DNA from: a virus
UHGV virus genome: UHGV-2105699
Strand: one strand, 5' to 3'
DNA: 46,955 bases
Every line of letters begins with the position of its first letter. The first letter of the stretch is position 1. Both the position numbers and the translations under genes were made by a program. The notes beneath the pieces were generated by a model. That model did not search any database and was not told the origin of the DNA. It saw only the letters and a program-made list of their open reading frames with translations. Of this stretch, positions 3,365 to 45,540 are shown in pieces.

Positions 3365-3421
3365 GTGTATCTACATCATCGCTTGCGATTCAATCTACGT
3401 CAATAGGATTATGATAAAATA
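3365..3421. promoter_or_regulatory. divergent promoter region with tandem ATCTACRTCA motifs (3368-3377, 3393-3403) and extended -10-like TGATAAAAT (3412-3420) upstream of endolysin
   Basis: Motif copies tcaatctacgtcaa and tatctacatca; read leftward gives TTGACG-N17-GATGAT. Rightward TG-n-TAAAAT sits 25 nt before ATG 3445. Confidence 0.4.
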
Positions 3422-5984: not shown

Positions 5985-6036
5985 CTTGACGAATCTACGT
6001 CAATTAGTCAATACTAGATGCTGTAGATTATAACAT
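5985..6036. promoter_or_regulatory. divergent regulatory region: palindromic cTTGACGaatctaCGTCAAt (5985-6004) plus inverted partial copy ctgTAGATT and TATAAC -10 (6029-6034) upstream of HNH gene
   Basis: TTGACG at 5986-5991 and CGTCAA at 5998-6003 form an inverted repeat around the conserved AATCTA core. Confidence 0.4.
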
Positions 6037-6051
6037 CTTAATGCGAGTGAC

Positions 6052-6573
6052 GTGGATATGAACTTTATTGACTTGTTTGTTTACGAAAACGGCAAGCTTT
6101 ACTGGAAGGTTAAGCCGTCAAACAACGTAAAGGCTGGCGCAAGGATTGGGTGCCTGGAGCCAACGACAGGTTATCGAAAGGTAAAAGTAAAATACACCCA
6201 GACATATGAGCACAGGATTGTTTGGGAGCTATTTAACGGACCAATACCGGAAGACATGGAAATTGATCACATCAACCACATCAGGGATGACAACCGAATA
6301 GAGAATCTGAGGCTTGTTAACAGGAGAGAAAACACGAGAAACAGTTCAATCAGGAGTGACAACACCAGTGGTGTTGTTGGTGTTTGTTTTGATAAAAAGT
6401 GCGGCAAGTGGTACGCGCAAATAGTCTTAAACGGAACAAGGCTGCACTTAGGTCGCTTTTCAGAAAAGAGCGAAGCAATAAAGGCCAGACTTGAAGCTGA
6501 AATGAAATATGGTTTCCATGAAAACCATGGAATCAATAGGCCAAAAAGAATGATAAAAGGTGGTGTGGAATGA
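6052..6573 (+). CDS. HNH homing endonuclease with C-terminal AP2 DNA-binding domain (copy 1 of 3)
   Basis: HNH core EHRIVWELFNG...IDHINHIRDDNRIENLRLVNRREN; AP2-like SGVVGVCFDKKCGKWYAQIVLNGTRLHLGRFSEKSEAIKARLEAE. Confidence 0.8.
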   Translation: MDMNFIDLFVYENGKLYWKVKPSNNVKAGARIGCLEPTTGYRKVKVKYTQTYEHRIVWELFNGPIPEDMEIDHINHIRDDNRIENLRLVNRRENTRNSSIRSDNTSGVVGVCFDKKCGKWYAQIVLNGTRLHLGRFSEKSEAIKARLEAEMKYGFHENHGINRPKRMIKGGVE

Positions 6574-6785
6574 AGAAGTGGCAGGAGGTGACAGAGGTTC
6601 ATAAGCGCGATTGCCGGGAGACTCTGCAAATGCTTAATGTGCCGGAGTCAATCATTAAATCTATCGAGCAGCGCATTGACCTCGCTGCTATGGAGGCCGC
6701 CCATGAAGCCGAGGAAGCGCAAATGTTGTCATGGATGGACAGAACTCTACCGGGCGTTTTACGTCGTGGTAAGACTACCGATTGA
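6570..6785 (+). CDS. hypothetical protein (71 aa)
   Basis: Start overlaps HNH stop (ATGA). An overlapping alternative ORF 6637..6879 exists; not resolved. Confidence 0.3.
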   Translation: MKKWQEVTEVHKRDCRETLQMLNVPESIIKSIEQRIDLAAMEAAHEAEEAQMLSWMDRTLPGVLRRGKTTD

Positions 6786-6868
6786 AGATGATGACGGGTA
6801 TCTGCACAACCATAGTCAGGTGCTCAAATATTATGGCGTTCACTATAAAGTGCTGATGGAGAGAAAAA

Positions 6869-7060
6869 ATGACTACTGATCAGGTGTACGAAAAAGAATT
6901 GCTGAACAAGCTGGAAGAACTTGATCGCACTCGCGCGTGGGTTGAAAGCGAATTGCGCGAGGTTCGCAACCGTATGCAACGGCAGGTTAACCGCGAAATT
7001 ATCGAATGGCGCGAAGGGCGTCCGCATTTCAGCAACATTGGTGAATGGGTGGCGAAATGA
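6869..7060 (+). CDS. hypothetical coiled-coil protein (63 aa)
   Basis: SD GGAGAGAAAAAATG; helical heptad-like sequence. Confidence 0.5.
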   Translation: MTTDQVYEKELLNKLEELDRTRAWVESELREVRNRMQRQVNREIIEWREGRPHFSNIGEWVAK

Positions 7061-7269
7061 GCAAGGCCAGCACGTTGCTTCAGTTAATCATGGCTGACAT
7101 CAGAGAGAGTAATGCAAGGTGCGACCGGAAGAAAAACCAGCCGGACCGCAGAACGTTGAAGCAAATGCTGCATCCCAAGCAAAAGCGACGTTATCGCAGG
7201 GATAGGGTTTTGCGTAAACTTTGTGATATCCAGATGAAATTTTTTATTACTAATGGGCTGAAAAAATGA
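7057..7269 (+). CDS. hypothetical basic protein (70 aa)
   Basis: ATG 7057 overlaps upstream stop (ATGA); Arg/Lys-rich. Confidence 0.4.
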   Translation: MSKASTLLQLIMADIRESNARCDRKKNQPDRRTLKQMLHPKQKRRYRRDRVLRKLCDIQMKFFITNGLKK

Positions 7270-7502
7270 AACCAATGATGAATGATGATGGGCTGCTTGA
7301 ATGCCCGTTTTGCGGTAGCAATGAAGCATACAAAGATAACAGTTACGGTGGGTACTACGTTGCCTGCCCTCAGTGCGGCTGCGGAACTGATGGGCGCTTT
7401 AAACTATCATTGGTCGTGAAGTTATGGAACACCAGGAACGGCCACCTCTACACCGCTGACGACTACAAACAGGATGCAATGGAGCGCGCAAATGGACTTT
7501 AA
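7266..7502 (+). CDS. zinc-ribbon protein, Lar-family restriction-alleviation-like
   Basis: LECPFCGS...ACPQCGCG: two CxxC pairs with the CPFCG signature typical of Lar-family small proteins. Confidence 0.5.
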   Translation: MKPMMNDDGLLECPFCGSNEAYKDNSYGGYYVACPQCGCGTDGRFKLSLVVKLWNTRNGHLYTADDYKQDAMERANGL

Positions 7503-7962
7503 AACGCAAATACTCACGGTGATAGAGCGCTGTGGTGGCGCAACCAATGCCATGATACGCAAGCAGACTGGCATGACAAACCGTGCCAGCGTTACCGGCT
7601 ATCTGATTGAGCTGGAGGGTATGGGATTTATTATTAAAGAGGAAAGCGTCAGCCATGGCAGGCGCTGCTTTAAATATTTCCTCAATCCCGATAATACTGC
7701 GCTTGACATGGCAATTCAGACGTACCTTGAGGCTAATCCTGGACGCAAGAGTAAGCAGATAGCGGAGGCTGTCGGCGTCAATTACACCATCCTCAAGGCA
7801 CGCATGCGCTATCTGGCAAGCATTGGTCAGGTTGACCGTGAAATGCTTCCTGGCGGAGCGTGGAAATATTACTGGCAGGAGATTATCCCGTTTGGCATGA
7901 GCCGTGACAGGATGATGTTTGAGAAGCTGCTTGCCGGGGCGCGCCAGTCATGTGGGCGGTAA
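7492..7962 (+). CDS. putative DNA-binding protein with two winged-helix-like segments
   Basis: Start taken at MDFKTQ (7492). Helix-turn-helix-like stretches ILTVIERCGGATNAMIRKQTGMT and KSKQIAEAVGVNYTILKARMRYL. Confidence 0.4.
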   Translation: MDFKTQILTVIERCGGATNAMIRKQTGMTNRASVTGYLIELEGMGFIIKEESVSHGRRCFKYFLNPDNTALDMAIQTYLEANPGRKSKQIAEAVGVNYTILKARMRYLASIGQVDREMLPGGAWKYYWQEIIPFGMSRDRMMFEKLLAGARQSCGR

Positions 7963-8240
7963 AGCATAAATCAGGAACTGTGCTGTTTGTCACCAGCTGT
8001 GAGCGCACAGCCAATAATCGCAGAGAGATGGGGTGGATAGTGGAGGAGGTGAATGTGAGCAAACCAAAAAGCGCATTAATTAAAATTACATGGCACGACG
8101 ACACAGTTAGCCAGTGGCATGCAGATTCATTCAGAGAGGGTGAGCACTCCATTGAAATGAATATTGGTGGATGCATCGTTTGCATCCCCTGGAGGTTATA
8201 CAAAGATGGCGAAGTCAAACATTTGGATGTGGAGTCGTAA
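7950..8240 (+). CDS. hypothetical protein (96 aa)
   Basis: ORF in early-gene run; no motif. Confidence 0.4.
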   Translation: MWAVKHKSGTVLFVTSCERTANNRREMGWIVEEVNVSKPKSALIKITWHDDTVSQWHADSFREGEHSIEMNIGGCIVCIPWRLYKDGEVKHLDVES

Positions 8241-8585
8241 ATGAAACTACAACTTAACGAAATCATGGAAGCAACAATTAGCGAGCTTGACTCATGGGAT
8301 ATGATGCTTGCCTTTGAAATCGAAGCTATCGAGCGCCAGCTCTCCGGGAATCATGATGCAGGCAGGGTATGGAAAGAGAAGGCCATGAAAGCGCGTGACC
8401 ATATGAAGCGCACCCGCGCGCTGGTTCGCACTCGCCTTGATAAGCTCTACTACGGCGAAGAAAGAATGTTGCATGGCGCCATTCTTGCTGAAATCCGCAA
8501 GACGATGCCCATCGGGAAATTCATGGATGCAGTAAACCGCGCAAAAATTAACTGCGGAATGCTAAATAAGAATAGTCCTCAATAA
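8241..8585 (+). CDS. hypothetical protein (114 aa)
   Basis: SD GGAGTCG upstream; no motif. Confidence 0.5.
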   Translation: MKLQLNEIMEATISELDSWDMMLAFEIEAIERQLSGNHDAGRVWKEKAMKARDHMKRTRALVRTRLDKLYYGEERMLHGAILAEIRKTMPIGKFMDAVNRAKINCGMLNKNSPQ

Positions 8586-8629: not shown

Positions 8630-8752
8630 ATGCCAATCATACTGATATCATTCTTTGCTACTCTTTTTGCTTTTACCGCGTCTCCGCTTTACCTTCTTGC
8701 GTCCGTTTCGTGGTGCATATTCATGGTGTGTTATAATCCGGGCATAAAGTAA
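8630..8752 (+). CDS. possible small hydrophobic peptide (40 aa, MPIILISFFATLFAFTASPLYLLASVSWCIFMVCYNPGIK)
   Basis: Near-consensus SD AGGAGGT 7 nt upstream of ATG 8630; single TM-like segment; below ORF-track size cutoff. Confidence 0.3.
   Translation: MPIILISFFATLFAFTASPLYLLASVSWCIFMVCYNPGIK
8706..8737 (+). promoter_or_regulatory. candidate extended -10 promoter (TGtTATAAT, 8729-8737) for the head gene block
   Basis: TATAAT at 8732-8737 preceded by TG at 8729-8730; 30 nt upstream of scaffold gene start. Confidence 0.3.
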
Positions 8753-13626: not shown

Positions 13627-13796
13627 TCATCATAAAATAAGAAATGCCTTGTTTTTTCTTCGTAACGCTTCATTTCAAATGCGATTATGTCCTCCTGATA
13701 GTGAATTTTCTCCACCTGGCGAGCCACGCCGTCTCGCATTAGGATGTGATTGCCTTCTTTTATGTTTTTTGCAGCAGTGCCAATTGTAATCATCAC
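13599..13796 (-). CDS. hypothetical protein (65 aa)
   Basis: Start overlaps ParB-like gene stop (ATGA). Confidence 0.4.
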   Translation of the reverse strand: MMITIGTAAKNIKEGNHILMRDGVARQVEKIHYQEDIIAFEMKRYEEKTRHFLFYDECANVVESW

Positions 13797-14644
13797 AGCT
13801 TCTCCAGAATCGCCAGCACTTCACTCAACTCAGCAGAAGGAAGGCGCAAAAATTCTTCTGTCTCCTGTGCCACATGGCCCTCAGCGACAACCATGTGATC
13901 TGCTTCTTTCAGCAACTGAATCAGGCGGTCAATCGGCTTAACTTTTTTGGCCTTGAGCGTTTTCGCCGTCACCTTATCTTTGCCCTGCGCTTTCGCTTCC
14001 TCAACGGCAGCATCAATAACGTTAACGGCATCATCGCCATGCTCACGCGCCACTGCAACGGCGTTGGCATAGCTGATTTGGCCTGCATTGATGCGTTGCT
14101 TGATAGCATCAGGCACATCACCAAGTGACAGGTGCATCTGCACATCAGAAACTGAGCGGCCTACTTTTTTGGCGATTTCTTCATTAGTCCATCCGAACCC
14201 TTTCAGGCGCACATAAGCCTTTGCGCGCTCAAGCGGGTCAAGCTGCTTGCCCTGACTTGAAGACACCATGAAGGCGATTTTATCTGCTTCATCGCCGGTA
14301 AAGTCTTTGCACTCAATGCGCGCAATTGGTACCCCTCGCTCAATGGCACGCAGTGCGCCAAGATAACGATGCTGGCCGTCAAGAATCTTAATGCGCTTTC
14401 CGTCAGCATCAGGAATAACAGTTAACGCCGGGATTGGCTGGCCTGATCCCCAGCACTGCGCGAAGTATTCAACGTGCTGCTCATCGGCTTCGCGGATGTT
14501 GTACCCCGGCTCAAGATAAAGCTGGTCTACAGGAACCTGATAACCTTTGTTGACCACGATTCCGCCGCGAGTTTCTTTGTCTGAGTAAATTTTTCCGAGA
14601 GATGTCATCTTTTCCTCACTTTGATAAACAGATTGCGCTGGCAA
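13793..14644 (-). CDS. ParB/Srx-like nuclease-domain protein with HTH
   Basis: ParB N-terminal box KILDGQHRYLGAL (DGxHR) and HTH-like EEIAKKVGRSVSDVQ; 283 aa. Confidence 0.7.
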   Translation of the reverse strand: MPAQSVYQSEEKMTSLGKIYSDKETRGGIVVNKGYQVPVDQLYLEPGYNIREADEQHVEYFAQCWGSGQPIPALTVIPDADGKRIKILDGQHRYLGALRAIERGVPIARIECKDFTGDEADKIAFMVSSSQGKQLDPLERAKAYVRLKGFGWTNEEIAKKVGRSVSDVQMHLSLGDVPDAIKQRINAGQISYANAVAVAREHGDDAVNVIDAAVEEAKAQGKDKVTAKTLKAKKVKPIDRLIQLLKEADHMVVAEGHVAQETEEFLRLPSAELSEVLAILEKL

Positions 14645-15009: not shown

Positions 15010-15056
15010 GTTTCTACGTCATCACTATAGCGACACCCTCAATCTACGTCAACACT
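15010..15056 (-). promoter_or_regulatory. sigma70-type leftward promoter TTGACG-N17-TATAGT with conserved TAGATTGAGGG spacer start, followed by a second motif copy (TGACGTAGAAACA) at the transcript start
   Basis: Minus strand reads TTGACG (15052-15047), 17-nt spacer tagattgagggtgtcgc, then TATAGT (15029-15024); second copy ttctacgtca at 15012-15021. Confidence 0.55.
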
Positions 15057-15213
15057 TTATGATAAAATTAAACCAACAACACTCACCCCGCGCTGTTCCG
15101 TCCTGAAAAACGTAAGGCGGCGAAATTGGATATAGCAATCGGCGTTATCGTCATAGCGTTTTCGCTGGTTCAGGTGTACAGATGCTGGAAGTTCATCATT
15201 CGGAGAATAATTA

Positions 15214-16754: not shown

Positions 16755-17134
16755 GAGATATGCTTGAACTTGTCGACCAGTACCTTAGCGATGCCGGTGT
16801 TTATGATGGGTGGACTTCTCAGCTTGAGTTCTGGAACGATACCGAAGTTGGCACCGAGCGCTTTATGGTGCTGCAATCCAATGGTGGCACTAGCGTAAGT
16901 AAAGGACTCGGCGGAGATTACTATTTTTCGCTCTATGTTGTCGGCCAGCAGGGTCAGTACAACATCGAAGAGACAAAAGCAAAGGCGCTTGATATCATCG
17001 CATACATCAAAGAGCATCCAGTTGATAGTTGTATTGGCATGATTCAGTTGCAGGCGCCGCTTGGTCGCCCTACGCTTACGACAGAGCAGAGGCCGGTTTA
17101 TGAATTGTTGCTGAGGGTTGTTTTTGGTGAATAA
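16751..17134 (+). CDS. putative tail completion / terminator protein
   Basis: 127 aa; start overlaps upstream stop (ATGA); last gene before the major tail region. Confidence 0.35.
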   Translation: MRDMLELVDQYLSDAGVYDGWTSQLEFWNDTEVGTERFMVLQSNGGTSVSKGLGGDYYFSLYVVGQQGQYNIEETKAKALDIIAYIKEHPVDSCIGMIQLQAPLGRPTLTTEQRPVYELLLRVVFGE

Positions 17135-17137
17135 AAA

Positions 17138-17160
17138 AGGCCGCTGATGCGCGGCTTTTA
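17138..17160. terminator. terminator between convergent genes
   Basis: GCCGC-tgatgc-GCGGC hairpin followed by TTTTAA, preceded by AAAAAA. Confidence 0.6.
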
Positions 17161-17343
17161 ATAATCATTACTACATAATAAATAATCAATGGCATCGCCA
17201 AGAGATTCGAATCTTGCATCATATCTCCCGGCAGAATTTGCAACAATATACCACTTCCCGACCTTTGATATACCAGCAACCCTGCTATTATTTTGGTCAG
17301 CTATGCGCCAGTAATCATCGTGGATTTTTTGGATTTGTATCAT
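17158..17343 (-). CDS. possible small protein (62 aa from ATG 17343, MIQIQKIHDDYWRIADQ...)
   Basis: ORF track gives 17158..17442; internal ATG 17343 has SD GGGGAG; upstream part of the longer ORF looks non-protein-like. Confidence 0.3.
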   Translation of the reverse strand: MIQIQKIHDDYWRIADQNNSRVAGISKVGKWYIVANSAGRYDARFESLGDAIDYLLCSNDY

Positions 17344-17767
17344 TGCGCTCCCCGAAGATGGTTCCCGCGACAGGATTCGAATTATTGTTGTGGCCCTGGT
17401 GCCTCCAGGTTGCTGGTCGGTAAATCCAGCAGGCATACCCACAAAAGGAGCATATTTCTACCTTGCCACGTGCGCATAGCCGCATTACCACAACGGAAAG
17501 AGCACTCCAGGACTTACCACACGTACTTTTGCGCATAGGTCGTCACCAGTGCGGGCGTGTCCCCTGAAGCTACCTGACAATGCTCTTACCTGTTGTGTGC
17601 CCATTATTAATCACACCGGGCCAGTGCGCCGAATTCATTGACAAGGAGTCGGAAGACCTTGCTGGTGTTTGGCCGTTAGGCTACTGCCAGATACATTTCT
17701 TCGTTTGCATTTATCTTTGTGGTCAGTTTCTAAAAACCCGCAAAGTCGCTTACGAAAACTATCTGCC

Positions 17768-17812
17768 ATTTAATCTACACCACCAATCAAAACCTGTCAA
17801 CATGATATAATG
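17768..17812 (+). promoter_or_regulatory. promoter for major tail gene: motif variant TTAATCTACACCACCAATCAA (17770-17790) plus perfect extended -10 TGaTATAAT (17803-17811)
   Basis: TGATATAAT consensus extended -10; the conserved AATCTACACCAMCAATCAA block is shared with the site at 36565-36585. Confidence 0.5.
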
Positions 17813-17845
17813 CGATTGTTTAGCTAAACACAGAGGATTCTAAAC

Positions 17846-18601
17846 ATGGCTATTTGTGCAAATGATAACGGCATCATCACAGGTCGCCAGTCTCTCATTG
17901 AGCTGGCTGATGGCTGCTGGGATGCTGTGCCAGCAGAGGAAGACTGGAAGTTTTTTGCTCCCATGACCTCAAAAGGCGTCGACTTCAGTCCAAGCACCAC
18001 CACTTCAGAGGCTGATGATGGCGATGGCTTTGTCGCCACGCTGGTCACTACGGCAGACCTCACCATTTCCGGTGATTTTGAAGTTCGCAAGGCTGACAAG
18101 GCTGATGAGTATGGCGTGCATAACCTCATCAAATACTTTGTCACCGAAGTAAAAGCGCGTCGCCAGCCGTCGCTGTGGGTTCGCCAGACCACCGGTAATA
18201 CTGTTGTCGTGGCTTACTGCAACATTACCGCTCTGAGCTACGATGGCGGCACCAACGACATCATCACCGGCTCTGTTGAACTCAAGCCGTATGATGGCTC
18301 TACCGTTGACGTGTACAGCATCGAAGACCTGACGCTGACTACTGATATCAGCGCAACAAAAAGCGTTGCCACTGGCGCCACTCTGACGCTCGGCCCGGTG
18401 GTTGCGGCTGGCGGTGTAGAGCCTTATACCTACCAATGGTATAAAGGCACCACGCCGATCAGCAGTGCTAATACCAACACGTTCACCAAGGACACTGCTG
18501 CCGCAGGTGATGATGGTACGTACTTCTGCCGCGTGATGGACTCGGCAACCAGTCCTGATTACGTTGACTCTACTAAGTGTGTCGTCACCGTGACCGAATA
18601 A
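17846..18601 (+). CDS. major tail protein with C-terminal Ig-like (Big_2-type) domain
   Basis: 251 aa; SD AGAGGA; C-terminal ~80 aa (TLTLGPVVAAGGVEPYTYQWYKGTTPIS...DDGTYFCRVMD) has an Ig-like fold signature (Y.C pattern) as in lambda gpV-type tail tubes. Confidence 0.6.
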   Translation: MAICANDNGIITGRQSLIELADGCWDAVPAEEDWKFFAPMTSKGVDFSPSTTTSEADDGDGFVATLVTTADLTISGDFEVRKADKADEYGVHNLIKYFVTEVKARRQPSLWVRQTTGNTVVVAYCNITALSYDGGTNDIITGSVELKPYDGSTVDVYSIEDLTLTTDISATKSVATGATLTLGPVVAAGGVEPYTYQWYKGTTPISSANTNTFTKDTAAAGDDGTYFCRVMDSATSPDYVDSTKCVVTVTE

Positions 18602-18808: not shown

Positions 18809-19097
18809 TCTCCTCTCTGATTGCAGTATACAGTTGTCGACGCAACATACACAGCGCTCCGTGTGGCATAAACTGTGAAACCATTCCGTCGAATATCTTC
18901 CGGTTTAATTTATTATCAATTCTCGGCCTGATTGCAGACCAGCATGACCTGATTGCACGATTAACCGGACGGCGGTCGAGCATTGCTATTCGCGCAGCTA
19001 GCTCAATAGTCACGATCGCGTCAAGATACTGCTCGCAGGAGTAGCGTGATTCGTCATCCTCTTCCGTGGTTTTTATGGTAGTTAAGTTTTCTTTCAT
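18792..19097 (-). CDS. hypothetical protein (101 aa)
   Basis: Overlaps HNH gene end; part of AT-rich leftward cassette. Confidence 0.4.
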   Translation of the reverse strand: MKENLTTIKTTEEDDESRYSCEQYLDAIVTIELAARIAMLDRRPVNRAIRSCWSAIRPRIDNKLNRKIFDGMVSQFMPHGALCMLRRQLYTAIREENDDDS

Positions 19098-19602
19098 ATA
19101 TCAATCTCGCCTTAACGGCATCGTCAAAGTTTACGTAGTAACCTATTGTTTTCTTTTTACCATCAATTGATATTGAAGACTTCCATTTCCCAAACCTATT
19201 AATAAAACAAACGCCACTAACGCCGCTAGTATTGTTTTTTTGCCTTGGCCTGTTTTTCATATTCTCAGACATTGACACATTTCTTAGATTTTCTATCCTA
19301 TTATTAGTCCCATCACCATCAATGTGGTCGATGTAATCAGGCCAATAACCATAATTCATAAACCATATTACCCTATGAGCTTTGTAAACCTTGCCATCTA
19401 TCCTTATGTTAATGTAAGAAGTCTGATGATCTTTGCTTTTTGACTCCCAACCAGCTTTGCTACCTTTAACCTTCCTGGCGTATCTATCAACATTCCATAC
19501 GAGATAACCATCATTATGGTATGTGAACAGTTCATTAAGCCTATCAAGCGATACGTCTGTTAACATTAAACACTCAATGCACCATCGAATACTATGTAAC
19601 AT
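19054..19602 (-). CDS. HNH homing endonuclease with AP2 domain (copy 2 of 3)
   Basis: YKAHRVIWFMNYG...IDHIDGDGTNNRIENLRNV and AP2-like SGVSGVCFINRFGKWKSSISIDGKKKTIGYYVNFDDAVKARLIYE; AT-rich codon usage relative to neighbours. Confidence 0.8.
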   Translation of the reverse strand: MLHSIRWCIECLMLTDVSLDRLNELFTYHNDGYLVWNVDRYARKVKGSKAGWESKSKDHQTSYINIRIDGKVYKAHRVIWFMNYGYWPDYIDHIDGDGTNNRIENLRNVSMSENMKNRPRQKNNTSGVSGVCFINRFGKWKSSISIDGKKKTIGYYVNFDDAVKARLIYERKLNYHKNHGRG

Positions 19603-19929: not shown

Positions 19930-19980
19930 TGCTTTCAATCTACGTCAGTTTTGCGCCCCCTGTCAATGGTATAATTACGT
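19930..19980. promoter_or_regulatory. divergent promoter region: motif TCAATCTACGTCA (19935-19947); leftward TTGACA-N18-TAGATT; rightward extended -10 TGgTATAAT (19967-19975)
   Basis: TATAAT at 19970-19975 with TG at 19967-19968; minus strand reads TTGACA (19967-19962), 18-nt spacer, then TAGATT (19943-19938, the AATCTA core of the motif). Confidence 0.45.
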
Positions 19981-32493: not shown

Positions 32494-32521
32494 TCAATCT
32501 ACATCAAACCACGTCATTCAT
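32494..32521 (-). promoter_or_regulatory. motif copy TCAATCTACATCA (32495-32507) plus CCACGTCA variant upstream of the exonuclease gene
   Basis: Same motif family as 15039-15052 in the same orientation relative to a leftward gene. Confidence 0.35.
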
Positions 32522-32930
32522 CAAGCCCAAAATAGAATAACGTCGCCCTTTTTAACTCCTCAAGACCATAAGAAATGGCGCCAAAGTGACCCTCTGCAAT
32601 GGCGCACTCCAGAACCTCAATCTGCGATGGCGATACTTTTGATTTTGTCTTATCACGCCTCTTCAGCTCAATCAGGCCGCATTTATGATTAATGCCGTGA
32701 GTTAGTATCACATTGTCGCTTACTCCGCTCCTGACGCCCATTTTGCGGCGTTTCTCGACGAATTGAGGGCCGCTCTTTGTTCCAGTCTCGTTAGGCACAT
32801 GAAACCACAGGACTTCAGGGAATCGGTATTGCATCCACAGACCATAGGCCATCTGGTCAGTTTCCTCCCTTGGACACTCCCCGCGATAACCACTATCAAA
32901 TACCCATATTCCACTATCAAGCTGCTTCAA
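32514..32930 (-). CDS. VRR-NUC domain nuclease
   Basis: 138 aa with VRR-NUC-type core (GVSDNVILTHG...GLIELKRRDKTKSKVSPSQIEVLEC). Confidence 0.6.
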   Translation of the reverse strand: MKQLDSGIWVFDSGYRGECPREETDQMAYGLWMQYRFPEVLWFHVPNETGTKSGPQFVEKRRKMGVRSGVSDNVILTHGINHKCGLIELKRRDKTKSKVSPSQIEVLECAIAEGHFGAISYGLEELKRATLFYFGLDE

Positions 32931-33451
32931 TTTGTTCTCCTACCGTGGTTTTTATGGAATCCATGCTTAACCTCAGCTTCCGCTCTTGCTTTTGCCGCAT
33001 TATTAAAATCAACAAATAATCCAAGATAAATGTTTTTACCTTTGACTTTTATTTGAGCCATCCATTTCTTCCTGTCTGAGTTCCATGTCACACCAGTAAC
33101 TCCAGAGGAGTTATTGGTTGCGATACCTTGATTCATGCCATTCCCAAGATTATTAACTAGCCTGAGATTTTCTATTCGATTATCATCACGAACATGATTG
33201 ATGTGATCAATCTGCATACCTCCTTGTATTGGCTCGTTATGCATTTCCCATATGATTCTATGTGCACGATAAAGACCCCTGCCAATTCTGACCATTACAT
33301 AACCAAACCTTGGGCGCTTGTTGCCTGCCGCTTTATATGCAAACCTAGTATTCCAAGTAGCTGCTGACTTCTTCGTCTTAAAAGTTGAAACATTTCTCTC
33401 CTTCCATATCAGAAGGCCATTTTCATAGTAAAAATAATCATGCCAGTTCAT
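32927..33451 (-). CDS. HNH homing endonuclease with AP2 domain (copy 3 of 3)
   Basis: YRAHRIIWEMHNEP...IDHINHVRDDNRIENLRLVNN and AP2-like SGVTGVTWNSDRKKWMAQIKVKGKNIYLGLFVDFNNAAKARAEAE; ~80% nt identity to copy 1 over the HNH core. Confidence 0.8.
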   Translation of the reverse strand: MNWHDYFYYENGLLIWKERNVSTFKTKKSAATWNTRFAYKAAGNKRPRFGYVMVRIGRGLYRAHRIIWEMHNEPIQGGMQIDHINHVRDDNRIENLRLVNNLGNGMNQGIATNNSSGVTGVTWNSDRKKWMAQIKVKGKNIYLGLFVDFNNAAKARAEAEVKHGFHKNHGRRTN

Positions 33452-35069
33452 TTTTTTGTCCGAATTCTTTTCTGTGGATGATATCGCGGCCTTTATCGTT
33501 AAAACGATGCGTTATGCGTTTTGGCGCGCGGATAAGACCAGTGAACGCCATGAATGCTTTTGCGTTGTGGCAATTCATGAGGTTATCAATCATATTCCTG
33601 TCTGATACGTGGTTTAGTAATCCTTTAATCTTAAACTGATTTTTAAGGTACTTCTCCTGCCTGCCAAATGGATAGAAAACCTCACTGGCCCAGCCATCTT
33701 TGCCGTTTTCTTTCGTGATGAAGTAACGATAAACAACGCCCTTCTCATCTTTCGTTAGCTCAATCTTGAAATCCTTGACTTCAGTCCATTCATTATCCGT
33801 ATAAGCACGCTCATTGAGAGCCGCGTTAGGGTCGCGCAAAACGTGATCGCATTGACGGCAATAACGAGCTGTCGGGTCGTTTTTTGTGCCGCAACCATCA
33901 TCAAAAATACGGATGCCGTGCTTGTCGAAACCGCAGCGAATGAAGCTGAAAAACTCTTCGCAACGACCATCTGGCGACGTTGAGTCTTTACCGATGCAAC
34001 GCCGTGCATATGGGCTGTTCATCGTCTGGCATTTAGGGCATGGAACCTGCTCTCCGCTACGCTTGGCGCGCTGCGCTTCTGCTTCCTCAAGAATAGGGTC
34101 TTCGTAGAGTTGGCCAAGCTCAAACATTGTTCCCGAGAAATCGAGAACCAGATGATCTTCTTTATGATACCCGGCTTCTATGTGTTCTTTTTTAAGTAGT
34201 CGCATACCCCTGCCCAATAATTGGACAAGAAGAGTTAACGACATTATTTTCCTTAGTATGACGCTTACATCCCACAAAGGTATGTTTACACCTGTTGTTA
34301 ACGCCGCAATTTGGAATGTGTATTTTATTTTTCCAGTGTAGGCATCTTTTAGAGCCTTCCGGCGAGCTTTCATGCCCATATCTTCAGTTACTATCGCATA
34401 GCTTCCTTCTGGTAAATATTTAGCGGCTTCCAAGCAATGCTTTTTCCCGGCACATGTAATCAATACCCCGTTCCTGTTTTTGGTCAACTCCATAACCTTG
34501 AGCATGATTTTCTGTGTAAGCGTACCTTGCTCAAGGATTTCTTTCTGCATCTGCTTTAGTTGTTCGGCAGTGAAATCCTGTGTGCCATCGCTTCCTGATG
34601 CCTCAAATGCTGACAGATCGTAATGCAAATCATCAATGTCATGCAGGCCAAAAATCGTCGGCACAAGAAACCCAATATCAACAAGATATTTGGTGTCAAT
34701 GTTTACTATTTCATGTTTCCAGTAAGCACCCTTAATCGAGTCTGTGCCACGAAAGGGACTGCCTGTATATCCAATAACGATGACATCGTGACCGTATTTA
34801 GCCTTACATCTGCGGTTAAGTTCAGTCATTATTACGCCATATTGCGTTTCAGGACTTTCGCTTACCACGTCCTCCCAGTTCATCTGGTGGCAGTTATGAG
34901 CTATGAATCCGTTTGCAACAAAGTTGTGATGGGTAGGCATCTCTATATCCCACACCATCTCATCACCAATTTCATTTATTGACTCGATTACTTTTGATTT
35001 TGTATTCCACGCCATCTTCCATGTGGTCAGCAATTCTTTTAAAAAACTCATCCTGCGCTTCCTCATCAA
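33438..35069 (-). CDS. helicase C-terminal fragment carrying an N-terminal intein C-half (IntC) - C-extein begins CHQMNW (DECH motif II), contains motif VI QLLGRGMR and a C-terminal multi-Cys zinc-finger region
   Basis: ORF begins (TTG 35069 / ATG 35066 / ATG 35048 with SD GAGGAAG) with ...KVIESINEIGDEMVWDIEMPTHHNFVANGFIAHN|C = intein blocks F and G followed by +1 Cys; same reading frame as the N fragment (36518-35069 = 1449 = 3x483). Confidence 0.6.
   Translation of the reverse strand: MMRKRRMSFLKELLTTWKMAWNTKSKVIESINEIGDEMVWDIEMPTHHNFVANGFIAHNCHQMNWEDVVSESPETQYGVIMTELNRRCKAKYGHDVIVIGYTGSPFRGTDSIKGAYWKHEIVNIDTKYLVDIGFLVPTIFGLHDIDDLHYDLSAFEASGSDGTQDFTAEQLKQMQKEILEQGTLTQKIMLKVMELTKNRNGVLITCAGKKHCLEAAKYLPEGSYAIVTEDMGMKARRKALKDAYTGKIKYTFQIAALTTGVNIPLWDVSVILRKIMSLTLLVQLLGRGMRLLKKEHIEAGYHKEDHLVLDFSGTMFELGQLYEDPILEEAEAQRAKRSGEQVPCPKCQTMNSPYARRCIGKDSTSPDGRCEEFFSFIRCGFDKHGIRIFDDGCGTKNDPTARYCRQCDHVLRDPNAALNERAYTDNEWTEVKDFKIELTKDEKGVVYRYFITKENGKDGWASEVFYPFGRQEKYLKNQFKIKGLLNHVSDRNMIDNLMNCHNAKAFMAFTGLIRAPKRITHRFNDKGRDIIHRKEFGQKNELA
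34893..35015 (-). other. intein C-terminal half (about 41 aa: MAWNTKSKVIESINEIGDEMVWDIEMPTHHNFVANGFIAHN), blocks F/G
   Basis: Classic HNF..NG...HN terminal motif immediately followed by Cys (34892-34890); length and pattern comparable to naturally split IntC halves. Confidence 0.6.
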
Positions 35070-35841
35070 AAATACTTACACAAAACATTTCGCGCTTTTT
35101 CGTTCCGCCAATGTAAGAATTAACTCGCGCTCCATTTAACCCAAGAAAATCATTCAATGCATTGGCAACTTCCCAGCATTCATCCTCAATGAACGCCTCG
35201 GTGTGAATAAATACCTGCCTGTACTTGCCGTAAGATATTGATGAATGCCCATCATCACCAAAATAAACAGCCCAACCAACTTCGTTTAACTCCCTGCATA
35301 TCTTTCCTATGTTGTACCCATTTGCTGAGTCGCCATATTTCTCAGCGTACCTGTCAAGTATCTTTGTGCATGATGTTCTAACCTGGAACCATTTGTCACC
35401 GAATCCATGATTATCCCTTTCGCTGTATGCTGCATTAAGTTTTTTGAATCTTGCGGCCTTGCACAGAGCGTGTTCTTTATTTCCCATATTCCACATCAGT
35501 CTGTGCGTTCCCCTTTTTGTGTTCTTAATCAGACACCCATCACCAGCAAGAGCGGCGAGTATGTTTTGATGCAAGAAGTAATCAATAACAAGGCCGCTAT
35601 CAACCGTTGAATTATGATGACCAGACCTAAAATCAACATAGTAACCGTAAGGATTTTCCAGCAATGCACTCAATCCTTTGCTCGCGTGCGGAAAAACCTT
35701 CTCGCCACAGCCACACTTGCACGAAGGAGCTTTGTCATAAATCTGTCCGACGAGCCATCTAACGACAGAGTCATCCCAGCCTTTAGTTTTCCCGCTTCTA
35801 CCCAGCAGCCGTTTGAATAAAGTTTGTGTGTACTCGTGCAT
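34972..35841 (-). CDS. LAGLIDADG-type homing endonuclease ORF lying between/overlapping the two intein halves, in the -1 frame relative to them
   Basis: Two LAGLIDADG-like motifs (NILAALAGDGCLIKN and GWAVYFGDDGHSSISY); ATG 35841 preceded by strong SD GGAGAGGAAATAAAATG; overlaps IntN ORF by 172 nt and IntC ORF by ~95 nt. Confidence 0.55.
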   Translation of the reverse strand: MHEYTQTLFKRLLGRSGKTKGWDDSVVRWLVGQIYDKAPSCKCGCGEKVFPHASKGLSALLENPYGYYVDFRSGHHNSTVDSGLVIDYFLHQNILAALAGDGCLIKNTKRGTHRLMWNMGNKEHALCKAARFKKLNAAYSERDNHGFGDKWFQVRTSCTKILDRYAEKYGDSANGYNIGKICRELNEVGWAVYFGDDGHSSISYGKYRQVFIHTEAFIEDECWEVANALNDFLGLNGARVNSYIGGTKKREMFCVSIFDEEAQDEFFKRIADHMEDGVEYKIKSNRVNK

Positions 35842-36518
35842 TTTATTTCCTCTCCGCCTTTTAATTTAACTGATGATACGCGTTTTATGCCATTAGTAAA
35901 TACTCTTTTAGGTTTGTGGTACACCCACTCACCAGCGACCTCATCCAAGCACTTGATTTCTTTGTTTATTAAGCTATCGTCATCAATTCTCACCCATCCA
36001 TCACTCGTCAATATCAGTGCATCACCAGTCAGGCACTCATCCATAAGAACAAAGCGAGGAGAAAAATCGGAAAGCGCACCTTTAGAAAGTAAATTACCTG
36101 ACTCGTCCTTCTTATCGAAAAGGCCATTTATTATTGTTCCCTCCGTACCAGCAATAAGCGGGTATGCCGTTGACTTTCTGCCAAGAGCAGCGCTAAAAAG
36201 TGAGTTTTTCACACTCAGATTCCACAGTTCCTCCGCATCCTGCTCAATAATTTCTGGCTGTCTTGCAATAACAAGCCCTTCCCACCCCATATCCTGAAAG
36301 CGCCGCGCAATCATGGCAATCATGATCGTCTTACCAGCACCTACCGATGCGGTAACGAAACTTGGCTTAGGGTCTTTGCCAAACTTGCGGATAACTTCAG
36401 CCGTCTTTTCATAAACCAGCCATTGATAAGGTCGTGGCTCAATCTCACCCGTATTAACAACTGACCGCAATTTGTCTATATCCAGCTCCGCAATCATTGC
36501 GTCTATTTTATGCGTCAT
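35670..36518 (-). CDS. helicase N-terminal fragment (Walker A ASVGAGKT; motif II LMDE) fused to intein N-half
   Basis: 161 extein residues ending VLMDE, then intein block A; ORF terminates 121 aa later. Joining exteins reconstitutes DECH-box motif II (VLMDE + CHQ). Confidence 0.6.
   Translation of the reverse strand: MTHKIDAMIAELDIDKLRSVVNTGEIEPRPYQWLVYEKTAEVIRKFGKDPKPSFVTASVGAGKTIMIAMIARRFQDMGWEGLVIARQPEIIEQDAEELWNLSVKNSLFSAALGRKSTAYPLIAGTEGTIINGLFDKKDESGNLLSKGALSDFSPRFVLMDECLTGDALILTSDGWVRIDDDSLINKEIKCLDEVAGEWVYHKPKRVFTNGIKRVSSVKLKGGEEIKCTSTHKLYSNGCWVEAGKLKAGMTLSLDGSSDRFMTKLLRASVAVARRFFRTRAKD
35673..36035 (-). other. intein N-terminal half (about 121 aa) beginning CLTGDALILTSDGWVRI (block A) with block B IKCTSTHKLY
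   Basis: Cys1 codon at 36035-36033 directly after extein residues FVLMDE; TxxH block B; ends at its own stop codon (35672-35670). Confidence 0.6.
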
Positions 36519-36536
36519 AGCAACTAACCTTTGTTG

Positions 36537-36585
36537 ATGTTTCTACGTCAGTTAGCTTATACTCAATCTACACCAACAATCAAGG
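36537..36585. promoter_or_regulatory. divergent promoter region between helicase (leftward) and primase (rightward): TTTCTACGTCA (36541-36550) and TCAATCTACACCAACAATCAAGGG (36563-36585)
   Basis: Same two-copy arrangement as 15010-15056; leftward reading gives TTGATT-N16-TATAAG followed by TGACGTAGAAACA leader. Confidence 0.4.
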
Positions 36586-36592
36586 GTCAATT

Positions 36593-37487
36593 TATGAGAT
36601 ACGACTGGAAGGAAATCGAGCCAAAAATGATCGGCAACTGGCAGGCTGCCATCATGTCTATCGTCAATGTGGATAGCAGAGTTTTCAATGGCAAGCACCA
36701 ACCATGCCCATCATGCTCAGGAAAAGACAGATATCGCTTTGATGACAACTTCGAAACAAAAGGCGATGGCGGTGCGATATGCAATCAGTGCGGTTCCGGC
36801 AGCGGCATGAACTGGCTGATGAAACTTTCTGGCATGAACTTCCCCGAAGCGCTGGAGGCGCTGGGAGGATTTCTGAATATGCACCCACGCGAAAAACTTG
36901 AGGCGATTAGAAAGCAACTTCCAAAGGTCAACCATGCTTCTGACTACCTGACAGAGGCAGAAGTGGCGACCATCATGGAAAAAGCAGGAGGCGACACCAT
37001 AACCGGCAAAACTGGTGAACTGGTGGCGATACCGCTCTATATGGCTGGAACCATGACGCCATGCAATGTAGCTTTTCTGGCAGACGATGAAAGCGTGTCA
37101 TTTCGCGCGGGTTTTAGCCATGAGTACACTCGTGGAAGACTTACGCGCGGCGCGGTGACACCCATCGGCGATAAGACAGAATGGACATACCTTGTTGCGG
37201 ATTACTTCGATGCCTGGCGAGCACACCGACTTACCGGTGCTCATGTGTGGTGCTGCTGGTCGTCGGAAAATATGTGGGAAGTTGTGCGTGATGTGAGCGA
37301 TGAGCAGCGAGCCAAACTACGCTGTATCATTAATAATAATTTCGATGAGGTATGCGCAGCCGAGAATGCAGGTCTTCAGATACTAATTACTGATGACGGG
37401 CGGGATATTCGTTACAGTGGCGCCATCAGAAAAAGGTTGTATAAACCAGAAGAGCTATTTGAAGCACTAAAAAACAAACCCTCCTGA
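36593..37487 (+). CDS. putative DNA primase (zinc-ribbon plus TOPRIM-like region)
   Basis: Start at MRYDWKE (36593). CPSCSGKDRYRFDD...GGAICNQCGSGSGMNWL zinc-binding element typical of phage/plasmid primases; ILITDDGRD acidic cluster. Confidence 0.5.
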
Positions 37488-39559: not shown

Positions 39560-39950
39560 CGACTTTTAACCATGATACCCCATAAATTACCCTCCGTAAA
39601 GCGGCCACAAACAAACTTTGGTTAGGGTTAACTGGGTTAACTGTGGGGAAGGCCATCTTCCCCAGGATTTTTTACTGTAAGTGTATGTATTATAATAATA
39701 ATAGTAGTAGTTGGGTTAATTGGGTATATTATTATTCATATTATAGATTTTATTTTAACAATAAATTAACAAATGAATTATATGGGTTATATATAAGGGG
39801 ATATGGGTGAAAACATACCCTGCTGCCCCTAAATTGTTAAATTACAATATTAACATTAACTTACAGAGAAAAATCTGGGGCAATTAACCTGCCCCAGCAC
39901 CTTACCCACAGTGGTAAAACTTACCCCAGGCGGATTTATTTTCACCATCA
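39560..39950. repeat. AT-rich noncoding region with GGGTTAA-type iterons, a GGGGAAG/CTTCCCC hairpin and AT tracts - putative replication origin
   Basis: ttaGGGTTAActGGGTTAActg (about 39620-39643), GGGGAAGgccatCTTCCCC (about 39643-39662), gtatgtattataataataatagtagtag, ttGGGTTAAttGGGTAT, atGGGTTATatataaGGGGATatGGGTG, and CTTACCCACAG / CTTACCCCAGG direct repeats; no ORF >60 aa. Confidence 0.4.
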
Positions 39951-39952
39951 TA

Positions 39953-39981
39953 TTGACGTAGATTGGGCGCCATCGTATAGT
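39953..39981 (+). promoter_or_regulatory. sigma70-type rightward promoter TTGACG-N17-TATAGT with conserved TAGATTGGG spacer start
   Basis: TTGACG 39953-39958, spacer 39959-39975 (tagattgggcgccatcg), TATAGT 39976-39981; mirror image of the promoter at 15024-15052. Confidence 0.6.
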
Positions 39982-42709: not shown

Positions 42710-42904
42710 ATGCCGCAAAAATCAAAGCAGGAGGTTTGGCAGAAGGCTCGGCTCGAAGAGGTTGACCACTTCATATCAGCAATCGCAAAAGCCTTTCCTG
42801 ATGCGATTGAGGTAGTTCACGTTCAAAGCAATAACTGTAATGTTTGGTGTTATGCGAAAACTGATGTACAATCATCTCATCAATCATCACCCACCACACT
42901 TTAA
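42710..42904 (+). CDS. hypothetical protein (64 aa)
   Basis: Followed by terminator. Confidence 0.35.
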   Translation: MPQKSKQEVWQKARLEEVDHFISAIAKAFPDAIEVVHVQSNNCNVWCYAKTDVQSSHQSSPTTL

Positions 42905-42928
42905 CCCGCTTCGGCGGGTTCTTTTTTT
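42903..42928 (+). terminator. rho-independent terminator
   Basis: ACCCGC-ttcg-GCGGGT hairpin followed by TCTTTTTTT. Confidence 0.75.
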
Positions 42929-42983
42929 ATCTACGCCATGTGTTAATATATCTGTATTCGGTTTACGAAAAGACGGAAACGAC

Positions 42984-43433
42984 ATGGCAAATCCAAATCC
43001 TATTATGAAGTTTTCTGCTGAATACCAGCCGGCAGGAAGGGGTTTAAGCTACAGAAACAGGTTAATAGAAGCATTAAAACGTTGCGGAATGGGTGAAGAG
43101 GAGTTTCTTGACGCATTCATTCGCACGTCAATCAGAATGGTGGAGGAAAATCCAACTCAGGGCGTGCAAATGCTGAAAGAAATATTTCTTCGCATTAGCC
43201 CCATGCAGAAGACAATGGCCCCTCCTGTTGAGTTCAAGTATCAGAAGGGTGCAACACCAGTTCGGCAGATTGAAGATGTCATTCAGTCAGTCTCGCTTGG
43301 TGAGCTTCCCATTGATGTTGCGTCTCAGGTTGTATCAATGATTAAGGTTGGCCTTGATGTTAAAGAGCTTACTGAGCTTGCCGAGAGACTTGAACGGCTT
43401 GAGAAGATGATGGAGAGCGCTAATGGCTCGTAA
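42984..43433 (+). CDS. terminase small subunit (by position; start at MANPNPIM)
   Basis: 150 aa ORF immediately upstream of, and overlapping, the large terminase; ORF track's upstream extension spans a terminator and is rejected. Confidence 0.5.
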   Translation: MANPNPIMKFSAEYQPAGRGLSYRNRLIEALKRCGMGEEEFLDAFIRTSIRMVEENPTQGVQMLKEIFLRISPMQKTMAPPVEFKYQKGATPVRQIEDVIQSVSLGELPIDVASQVVSMIKVGLDVKELTELAERLERLEKMMESANGS

Positions 43434-44847
43434 ACGCCTGTCAGCACTGGCAATAGAAAAGCTGGAGGCGCAGGTGGATGATGCGATGACCGATGTGGCA
43501 GAGTCGGCCATCTTCGGCATCTGCGATATGCAGAAGAACGTCATCAGGCGCCTCAGAATGACCGCTACGGGCGTGGAGGATGTCACCAGTGAAACAACGC
43601 AAGAAGACCACTTAATCCCCGCAAAACTCGAAAGGCTGCTTTATCCGAAGCGTAATAAGGTTGTCTTTGGTGGTCGAGCATCAACCAAAACTCGGACCGT
43701 AGCAACCATACTCACTGAGTCGGCGAGATTCAGGCCGGAGCGTATTGGCTGCTTCCGCGAAATTCAGCAGTCTATCGAGGACTCCAGCTATCAGGAGCTG
43801 GTAGATGAAATCGACCGCAAAGGAGAATCATCGGAATATCGCTGCATCGACGGCAAGATAACCCACAAGCGAACGAAATCAAAATTCAGGTTCCGTGGCC
43901 TCTATCGCAACATCACCGGCGTCAAGGGTTTTGCCGGGATATCGAAAGCATGGGTGGAAGAAGCTGAAAACGTCAGCCAGGCGTCGTGGGACATCCTTGA
44001 GCCAACCATCCGAGCAGAAGGTTCTGAGATATGGGTGACGTTCAACCCCAACAAAGAAACCGATGCCACTTGGACTCAGTGGGTGGCGCCCTATTACGAC
44101 AAGATGGTTGATGGCATCTACGAGGATGATGACACATTAATCATTGAGTGTAATTACCGAGACAACCCGTGGTTCTATGACACCCCGCTCCCAGCATCCA
44201 TGGAGAAAATGAAGGCGGTAGATTTCGACCGATATCTCTGGATTTGGGAAGGAAAATTTAATAAACGAAGCGATGAGCAGGTATTCGGCGGAAAATGGCG
44301 CACCGCATCGTTTGAGGTTAAACCTGAATGGCATGGCCCTTACCATGGCATGGATTTTGGTTTCTCTGGCGACCCTGCCGCAATGGTTGAGGTTTGGGTG
44401 GAAAACCTACCCGGCGACCGGCGCAACATTTATATTAATCGTGAGTATGGCAAGGTTCATCTTGAGATTACCGACCATCCGGCAGCAATGGACCAGGCAT
44501 TTCCGATGGCGCGCAAGGCAAGATGGTATGCTGACTCATCAAGGCCGGAAACCATCAGCCACATCAAGCGAGCTGGCTTTGACATTCATCCCTGCAACAA
44601 ATGGCCAGGCAGTGTTGAAGATGGCGTGACATGGCTCAGGGGTTGCGACAGCATCATCATTCACGACCGCTGCACGGAAATGAAAAACGAGGCTGCGATG
44701 TACAGCCACAAGGTCGACAAGAATACAGGCCTTGTGCTTACTGAAATCGTTGATAAATATAACCACTATTGGGATGCGGTGCGCTATGCGCTGAATGACT
44801 ATATTGTGCAGCGCGGCTCTGGATGGATTAGAAGGGGCAGGAGATAA
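43423..44847 (+). CDS. terminase large subunit
   Basis: 474 aa; deviant Walker A VVFGGRASTKT, ATPase-plus-nuclease two-domain architecture; followed by bidirectional terminator. Confidence 0.85.
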   Translation: MARKRLSALAIEKLEAQVDDAMTDVAESAIFGICDMQKNVIRRLRMTATGVEDVTSETTQEDHLIPAKLERLLYPKRNKVVFGGRASTKTRTVATILTESARFRPERIGCFREIQQSIEDSSYQELVDEIDRKGESSEYRCIDGKITHKRTKSKFRFRGLYRNITGVKGFAGISKAWVEEAENVSQASWDILEPTIRAEGSEIWVTFNPNKETDATWTQWVAPYYDKMVDGIYEDDDTLIIECNYRDNPWFYDTPLPASMEKMKAVDFDRYLWIWEGKFNKRSDEQVFGGKWRTASFEVKPEWHGPYHGMDFGFSGDPAAMVEVWVENLPGDRRNIYINREYGKVHLEITDHPAAMDQAFPMARKARWYADSSRPETISHIKRAGFDIHPCNKWPGSVEDGVTWLRGCDSIIIHDRCTEMKNEAAMYSHKVDKNTGLVLTEIVDKYNHYWDAVRYALNDYIVQRGSGWIRRGRR

Positions 44848-45104: not shown

Positions 45105-45150
45105 CCTCAATGACTACAATCTACATCAGCGATGAATCAACGTCAAAATT
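45105..45150 (-). promoter_or_regulatory. leftward promoter built from two motif copies: TTGACG (45137-45132) - N17 - TAGATT (45114-45109); plus TATAAT at 45143-45148
   Basis: CAATCTACATCA (45108-45119) and AATCAACGTCAA (45126-45137); minus strand reads TTGACGttgattcatcgctgatgTAGATT. Confidence 0.45.
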
Positions 45151-45469: not shown

Positions 45470-45540
45470 TCATTTTAATCTACGCCATGCTAGAATCTAC
45501 GCCAAGGCGCATTGACATAACTACATCACTGGGGCATCAT
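45470..45540. promoter_or_regulatory. divergent promoter region with tandem AATCTACGCCA copies (45477-45487, 45494-45504; 17-nt period) and TTGACA (45512-45517)
   Basis: Leftward reading gives TTGGCG-N17-TAGATT upstream of gene 45450; rightward TTGACA lies 21 nt before ATG 45539. Confidence 0.4.

Follow-up and report, generated by a model that had tools for sequence, protein, structure and literature searches.

Short DNA elements that recur at many promoters of one genome are familiar from other phages. The C1 operator of the temperate phage P1 is asymmetric, about 17 bp long and dispersed at many promoters; it holds -35-like and -10-like stretches, and the operators form parts of promoters. 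In the L5 repressor site, a -35-like TTGACA is present, and the site extends over the Pleft -35. Switching of promoter class, in favor of extended -10 promoters, is known from T4 AsiA and from gp39 of the Thermus phage P23-45. The repressor sites of L5 and the cluster A phages are 13 bp long, asymmetric and present in many copies, with an orientation tied to transcription; the protein that binds them does so as a monomer equipped with two DNA-binding domains (PMC9283540). In the PeSL cassettes of T4-type phages, an early promoter and a conserved stem-loop flank variable genes (PMC2839356). Here, we describe a real, conserved and lineage-specific regulatory motif of this familiar kind in a Klebsiella siphophage.

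The window is the whole 46,955-nt stretch of UHGV virus genome UHGV-2105699, which is a complete, circularly permuted phage genome. Its relatives RCIP0103, BUCT610, KpV2811, KlebP_265 and DP01 are 93–95% identical to it over 70–79% of a 6-kb test stretch, and the window is collinear with BUCT610, the 'Aeromonas' phage pIS4-A (Roufvirus) and others. The group has been proposed as a family with the subfamilies Roufvirinae and Skatevirinae, and its members were described as lytic, mosaic and without integrase (PMC11769527). The Shigella phage Sf11 (Cedarrivervirus) and the E. coli phage Bas81 are both distant relatives of the window phage.

The motif has the 13-base consensus tTGAYGTAGATTg. In a k-mer survey, TGACGTAGA was the top over-represented 9-mer of the window (7 occurrences vs. 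0.13 expected), and TTGACGTAGATTG with up to two mismatches matched 11 times against an expectation of 0.94, a count reached by none of 100 shuffles. The core TG[AG][CT]GTAGA occurs 15 times in the window, with 13–14 of these copies being intergenic. A position weight matrix (PWM; cut-off 12 bits), which is circular because it was trained on the sites that it then scores and to which the k-mer counts are therefore to be preferred as unbiased evidence, gave 19 matches in the window, compared with a mean of 2.5 in Markov shuffles. Seventeen of the 19 lie in intergenic DNA, which makes up 7% of the genome (binomial p ~4e-18), and 15 of these 17 are followed by a same-strand gene 9–75 nt downstream. 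The copies sit in about 11 promoter regions, the single exception being 42927-42939, which is antisense to its flanking genes.

These results bear out the original prediction of a recurrent 13-bp intergenic element whose orientation follows the adjacent gene: the element exceeded the shuffled-genome controls, the suggested PWM scan placed most of its matches in intergenic DNA, and related phages carry 11–15 copies per genome. All sites in the initial list exist. The pair given as 45108-45119 and 45126-45137 was misplaced by about 9 nt (truly 45117-45129 and 45134-45146), and two copies, 6018-6030 (+) and 42927-42939 (-), had been overlooked.

The other over-represented k-mers (TTGTCGA, GAAGACCTG and TGCCGGGA) were mostly coding and were discarded as not being regulatory repeats. 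Rfam returned zero matches at the gathering threshold, with sub-threshold noise only, at 17100-17860. Compared by eye with the consensus sites of IHF, FNR, CRP, MetJ and CpxR, the motif showed no likeness to any of them, and we found no description of it in the literature searched.

Table 1 Motif copies, extended -10 elements and associated genes in the window
Feature	Position	Strand	Context
Motif copy	3391-3403	-	-35 (TTGACG-17-GATGAT; 3403-3375) for operon 3345-2130
Degenerate second copy ATGATGTAGATAC	3367-3379	-	Same region as 3391-3403
Extended -10 TGATAAAAT	3412-3420	+	Lysis operon; back-to-back with the 3403 motif promoter
Motif copy TTGACGTAGATTC	5991-6003	-	Leader, ~+15 to +30 behind extended -10 TGTTATAAT at 6035-6027(-)
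Weak copy ATGCTGTAGATTA	6018-6030	+	Faces HNH/Lar/winged-helix operon (6052-8585)
Candidate binder	7492-7962	+	156 aa, two winged-helix-like halves
Extended -10 TGTTATAAT	8729-8737		Same class as 3412-3420
Second candidate or partner	13793-14644	-	ParB/Noc/KorB-family protein, behind the best double-motif promoter
Second copy ATGACGTAGAAAC	15010-15022	-	Directly 3' of the -10, over the expected start; opens conserved leader GTAGAAACAACAATAAATGTTAGAGGTGATGA
Motif copy TTGACGTAGATTG	15040-15052	-	-35 of ParB-operon promoter; -10 TATAGT 15029-15024, spacer 17
Extended -10 TGATAAAAT	15060-15068	+	Same class; divergent from the 15052 motif promoter
Copy GTGGTGTAGATTA	17771-17783	-	-10 TAGATT; separate -35 TTGACA 17800-17795, spacer 17
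Extended -10 TGATATAAT	17803-17811	+	Same class; major-tail promoter
Copy CTGACGTAGATTG	19936-19948	-	-10; -35 TTGACA 19966-19961, spacer 18
Extended -10 TGGTATAAT	19967-19975	+	Same class
Copy TTGATGTAGATTG	32495-32507	-	-10; -35 TTGATG 32524-32519; exonuclease VIII/Erf/SSB promoter
Split helicase ORF	33438-35069	-	
Split helicase ORF	34972-35841	-	LAGLIDADG_2
Split helicase ORF	35670-36518	-	ResIII N-terminus and HINT/intein matches
Copy CTGACGTAGAAAC	36539-36551	-	Just past the helicase-promoter -10 (start-site position); also between the two hexamers of the primase promoter on the other strand, TTGATG-18-TATACT
Copy TTGGTGTAGATTG	36564-36576	-	In the spacer of helicase operon promoter TTGATT-16-TATAAG
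Motif copy	39953-39965	+	-35 of rightward small-gene operon (40003); TTGACG-17-TATAGT, -10 at 39976-39981
Conserved antisense copy ATGGCGTAGATAA	42927-42939	-	Between + strand terminator 42903-42920 and extended -10 TGTTAATAT
Extended -10 TGTTAATAT	42941-42949		Same class
Two copies, 17-nt offset	45117-45129 and 45134-45146	-	Upstream TTGACG as -35, downstream TAGATT as -10
Two copies, 17-nt offset	45476-45488 and 45493-45505	-	TTGGCG as -35, TAGATT as -10

The 13-mer is a -35-like hexamer, TTGAYG, fused to a -10-like hexamer, TAGATT, and its copies occupy four placements: the -35, the -10, the start site (+1) and the leader at about +15 (Table 1). Promoters built with it at 15052, 39953, 17800 and 19966 score 10/12 against the sigma70 consensus, and those at 32524, 45146 and 45505 score 8–9/12. 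These promoters combine a -35-like hexamer with a -10-like one (A in second and T in sixth place) across a spacer of 16–18 nt. This geometry is also kept in Sf11 and Bas81, even though their spacers have other sequences. The near-identical TTGACG-17-TATAGT promoters at 15052-15024 and 39953-39981 and the 17-nt-offset double copies at 45146/45129 and 45505/45488, all recognized in the original prediction, were confirmed in their geometry, and the double-copy arrangement recurs in Sf11 and Bas81. The promoter or operator grammar proposed there stands as far as sigma70 geometry, orientation and extra conserved bases are concerned, but with four placements instead of two.

Two regularities extend beyond the hexamers themselves. 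Wherever TAGATT serves as a -10, TGRYG invariably lies 5' of it, in positions that do not match the TGn of an extended -10. A -35 embedded in the motif ends in G without exception, whereas the stand-alone -35s of these genomes read consensus TTGACA. At the level of single sites, all 13 columns of the copy at 3391-3403 are invariant across three lineages, and the weak copy at 6018-6030(+) corresponds to a perfect TTGACGTAGATTG in Sf11 and Bas81. The leader copy at 5991-6003 is part of a near-palindrome, TTGACG-N6-CGTCAA (5986-6003), and the extended -10 promoter TGTTATAAT in front of it (6035-6027, - strand) is conserved. In relatives, the equivalent of the start-site copies reads TACTAT-tg-TGAYGTAGATTG.

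Two arrangements deserve separate mention. Within 36519-36592, the leftward helicase promoter and the rightward primase promoter (ATG at 36593) stand face to face and share one -10 region on opposite strands, and each of their spacers holds a motif copy. The copy at 42927-42939, the only intergenic one with no same-strand gene ahead of it, follows directly on the hairpin of a + strand terminator and precedes the extended -10 TGTTAATAT by 2 nt; pIS4-A, KpV2811, KlebP_265 and Bas81 keep the arrangement of 42927-42949, also in cases in which the hairpin has another sequence.

Motif promoters precede the small accessory cassettes, the ParB operon, the superinfection-immunity cassette, the tRNA region of relatives, the exonuclease VIII/Erf/SSB genes, the helicase operon, the Lar/winged-helix operon and the 40003 operon, which runs rightward. 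Sense-oriented motif copies are absent in front of the lysis, head, connector, major-tail, tail and terminase operons, where extended -10 elements without a -35 are found instead. The motif is very probably the signature of the non-structural sigma70 promoters. This refines the original prediction, as structural and lysis operons use the motif-free class. The claim made there that each HNH insertion has a copy of its own found no support: of the three HNH genes in the window (6052-6573, 32927-33451 and 19054-19602), only the first has a copy, the weak 6018-6030(+), while the other two lie inside operons without one.

Four extended -10 promoters stand back-to-back with a motif promoter, inside the polymerase footprint. 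The rightward extended -10s at 3412, 15060, 17803 and 19967 are kept in Sf11 and Bas81, with different flanks and different distances to the motif. In the window, these distances are 2, 7–8 and 18–19 nt, and they are different again in Sf11. We infer that the two promoter classes are probably temporal classes.

Eight related genomes, Sf11 and Bas81 among them, also have the motif in the orthologous regulatory regions. It marks nearly all non-structural promoters of the window phage and of its relatives from Salmonella, Shigella and E. coli. TGACGTAGA or TGATGTAGA is the top over-represented 9-mer in Sf11 and Bas81 as well, and all nine genomes of the group carry 11–15 copies, as opposed to 2, the chance level, in the unrelated Klebsiella phage Kp4856-1. 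By its distribution, the motif is lineage-specific and not host-generic. In cross-lineage alignments, motif and core hexamers form conserved islands amid diverged DNA, with 83% invariant columns in the motif vs. 47% in flanking and other positions, a contrast that is inflated because the orthologous sites were located via the motif itself. The ParB-operon promoter illustrates the pattern: eight genomes share TGTTGACGTAGATT, the -10 TATAG and the leader TG(A/G)CGTAGAAACAACAATAAATGTTAGAGGTGATGA without change, while they differ in the other 10 bases of the spacer, in the DNA upstream and even in which gene comes first downstream. The first 6–7 bases of its spacer (TAGATTG) are as conserved as the -35 hexamer. 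A scan of viral contigs with the 14-mer TTGACGTAGATTGA was uninformative, as its matches were at the level expected by chance for a 14-mer in so large a collection; among the matches listed, 46–48 kb relatives were mixed with unrelated contigs.

Sigma70 geometry, an orientation that tracks the genes and conservation beyond the hexamers together fit a promoter with a possible regulator site. We therefore lean, with modest confidence, towards reading the motif as a lineage-specific signature of non-structural (early/middle) sigma70 promoters that is at the same time the probable operator of a phage-encoded protein. The motif supplies the -35 half at some sites, with TATAGT 17 nt downstream, and the -10 half at others, with TTGACA or a second copy 17–18 nt upstream; elsewhere, it overlies the start site or the leader. 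A sequence-specific phage protein would bind it in competition with RNA polymerase, most likely as a repressor that shuts off the motif promoters. With these silent, the extended -10 promoters that overlap them divergently, those of the lysis, head and tail operons, would be freed.

For the operator component taken alone, the chances appear roughly balanced. It is suggested by bases outside the sigma70 elements that are as conserved as the hexamers, and by the copies at +1 and about +15. Sites lying over the -35, the -10 and the start site have the look of a repressor operator, and an operator able to replace either hexamer must contain both, which is the composition seen in the motif. Both candidate regulators (see below) are encoded in motif-driven operons. 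As a counterpoint, paralogous promoters may share ancestry or be homogenized by recombination, and the copy at 42927-42939 departs from the orientation rule.

The nearest functional analogue is the set of L5/cluster A sites, with which the motif shares an asymmetric site of about 13 bp, a high copy number and an orientation correlated with transcription. In contrast to those stoperators, which are spread over gaps inside operons, the copies described here are limited to promoter regions. Furthermore, the phage group is described as lytic and without integrase (PMC11769527), and although a protein with two winged helices is present, it has no recognized similarity to the cluster A repressor (gp71). 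For these reasons, we do not file the motif as a member of the L5 type. With the P1 C1 operator, it shares no sequence similarity, and no C1 homologue was recognized in the window.

That these are plain sigma70 promoters, sharing the 13-mer through descent, gene conversion among cassettes and selection for strong promoters without any dedicated factor, is the alternative that survives best, although we consider it rather unlikely. Both halves of the motif resemble sigma70 hexamers, most copies are readable as a -35 or a -10 with a 16–18 nt spacer, and any two copies placed 17 nt apart automatically form a promoter. High mosaicism within the group (PMC11769527) and the variation among relatives in which gene follows the conserved ParB promoter-leader both indicate that promoter blocks move. 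The sites recall the PeSL cassettes, where conserved promoter blocks likewise border variable accessory genes, just as the ParB promoter-leader adjoins a variable first gene; unlike PeSLs, however, they share no stem-loop, and only 5986-6003 is palindromic. Common descent does not account well for the conservation of the junction and of non-hexamer bases where the flanks of the lineages have diverged, nor for a sixth -35 position fixed as G, in place of the consensus A, only in motif-embedded hexamers. The copies at +1 and about +15, moreover, are no promoter elements.

An activator or specificity box, in the style of the T4 MotA box or a Pho box, that recruits RNA polymerase to the motif promoters or to the divergent late promoters is a distinctly improbable explanation. 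The motif does occupy -35 to -23 in three or four regions, and it contains a direct repeat, TTGA-N6-TTGA, whose 10-bp period would be well matched to a tandem winged-helix protein. As with MotA, a conserved phage-specific promoter signature defines what would be a temporal class. The MotA box, however, is fixed near -30 and replaces the -35, whereas the motif varies in position between -35, -10, +1 and +15, activators do not act at +1 or about +15, and its -35 half by itself makes a good sigma70 hexamer. The spacing between the motif and the divergent extended -10 elements is variable too, and we rejected a fixed-distance activator of the divergent late promoters on this account. A box of fixed position is made unlikely by both kinds of variation.

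The pairing of -35-dependent promoters, here presumed early, with extended -10 late promoters lacking a -35 also resembles the AsiA and gp39 systems. No anti-sigma or flap-binding factor was identified among the window proteins, and a mechanism of this type would leave the extra conserved bases unexplained.

If the motif is indeed the operator of a phage protein, the best candidate for its binder is the family-restricted tandem winged-helix protein encoded at 7492-7962(+). Pfam assigns MarR to residues 12-63 and HTH_24 to residues 80-111 (numbered from the 162-aa ORF starting at 7474). Its AlphaFold model (mean pLDDT 74) has a winged helix followed by a second three-helix unit, and Foldseek matched it at the domain level to MarR/PadR and multi-winged-helix proteins (TM ~0.4); a sequence search of the PDB gave nothing useful. 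Homologues in a collection of 5.8 billion proteins were all close relatives with 65–99% identity, the long contigs being 46–48 kb, and this confinement to the phage group fits a lineage-specific site. The operon is driven by a motif promoter whose copy is perfect in Sf11 and Bas81. The protein of the window is only 36% identical to that of the Sf11/Bas81 lineages, which share the motif; at the level of sequence, this would count against the candidate. A putative second recognition helix, Y-x-I-L/V-K-A/S-R-M/V-R, is retained between the lineages.

Pfam and PHROG scans of 40 window proteins returned few DNA-binding candidates, and no KorA-, AsiA- or MotA-like protein or further HTH protein was found in the Pfam scans of these 40. 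The second candidate or partner, encoded at 13793-14644, matches Spo0J, ParB, Noc and KorB structures. A binding site for this protein, parS- or OB-like, is nevertheless a most improbable role for the motif. The best double-copy promoter drives the ParB-like gene, and the protein is about 80% identical in all motif-bearing lineages, Sf11 and Bas81 included. ParB, Noc and KorB proteins, however, bind palindromes, whereas the motif is asymmetric, and the window offers a better candidate.

This is the perfect 14-bp palindrome TGTTTAGCTAAACA at 17817-17830, which occurs once in the genome (chance ~2e-4), 6 nt past the major-tail extended -10 and 17 nt 5' of the -35 in the leftward 17800 promoter. 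At the orthologous position, Sf11 and Bas81 carry GTTAGCTGCTAAC, which resembles the KorB operator TTTAGCSGCTAAA. TGTTTAGCTAAACA itself has exactly the sequence of the KorA operator (OA) duplex of RK2 in PMC11790492. The palindrome is a likelier site for the ParB-like protein than the asymmetric motif, and is likely its putative loading or operator site. The parallels with RK2 KorA/KorB extend further, as dispersed promoters on a mobile genome share a short site, a ParB-family CTPase-type protein lies behind an apparently autoregulated promoter, and an OA-identical palindrome is present (PMC11790492). The asymmetric motif differs from the palindromic RK2 operators and is unrelated in sequence to OA (GTTTAGCTAAAC) or OB (TTTAGCSGCTAAA). 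There is also one palindrome per genome, and no KorA-like family match was obtained among the 40 window proteins.

A speculative extension, which we hold to be a long shot, combines the two candidates: the 13-mer would be the operator of a monomeric tandem winged-helix protein and the palindrome the site of a ParB/KorB-like clamp, with KorA/KorB-style silencing timing the switch of promoter class. If true, it would constitute a genome-wide silencing circuit in a virulent siphophage, passing from -35-dependent non-structural to extended -10 structural promoters.

Least probable of all, and scarcely credible, is an action at the RNA level, or one as a pause signal that depends on sigma70 and lies within the initially transcribed region: the promoter-proximal copy lies 9–46 nt from the start codon, the copies at 15010-15022, 36539-36551 and 5991-6003 would be transcribed and the leader past 15022 is invariant, but the copies that supply a -35 or -10 (39953, 19948, 17783 and 32507) lie outside their own transcript, so that an RNA role fails for them, Rfam has no matches, and in TAGAAA, the final T that is conserved in -10-like pause elements is missing.

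Phages of this group (the proposed Roufvirinae/Skatevirinae) are under development for Klebsiella and Salmonella therapy and for genome reduction, and their transcription program is undescribed. The motif provides a ready map of about 11 non-structural promoters, and if the extended -10 class is added, temporal control can be framed as a two-class model that is open to testing. As DNA of defined sequence, the motif could serve as bait for the regulator, and it supplies compact, portable promoter-operator parts. Should a repressor bind it, one short element replacing either hexamer would be an example of operator-promoter co-design.

Several further observations concern the surroundings of the motif promoters. 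The 17800 promoter corresponds to the tRNA-region promoter of relatives, and at the position of 17135-17770, pIS4-A, KlebP_265, Sf11 and Bas81 carry tRNA-Ser/Arg/Met genes; neither ARAGORN nor Rfam detected a tRNA behind this promoter in the window (17135-17770). The TTGACA-17-TAGATT promoter and its leader (AGATAGTTTTCG..GCGACTTTGCGG..TTTTTAG) are conserved across lineages despite the missing tRNAs. A non-coding, AT-rich region of 290 bp (39657-39950) separates the leftward helicase operon from the 40003 operon, which runs rightward. It contains repeated GGGTTA, GGGTAT and CCCCAG-type boxes together with two extended -10 elements that point leftward (39760-39752 and 39855-39847), and may be a replication origin or packaging region.

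The phages pIS4-A and pYD38-A, with Aeromonas and Vibrio as recorded hosts, are near-identical to each other and to the Klebsiella phages, down to every promoter motif, and their recorded hosts look doubtful. The large terminase subunit (43423-44847) comprises 474 aa in the window and KlebP_265 vs. 839 aa in pIS4-A, pYD38-A and KpV2811, a difference in size that suggests an intein or insertion in the longer proteins. In the helicase region (33438-36518, - strand), the window has three overlapping ORFs compared with a single 680-aa ORF in BUCT610, which looks like an intein or homing-endonuclease insertion.
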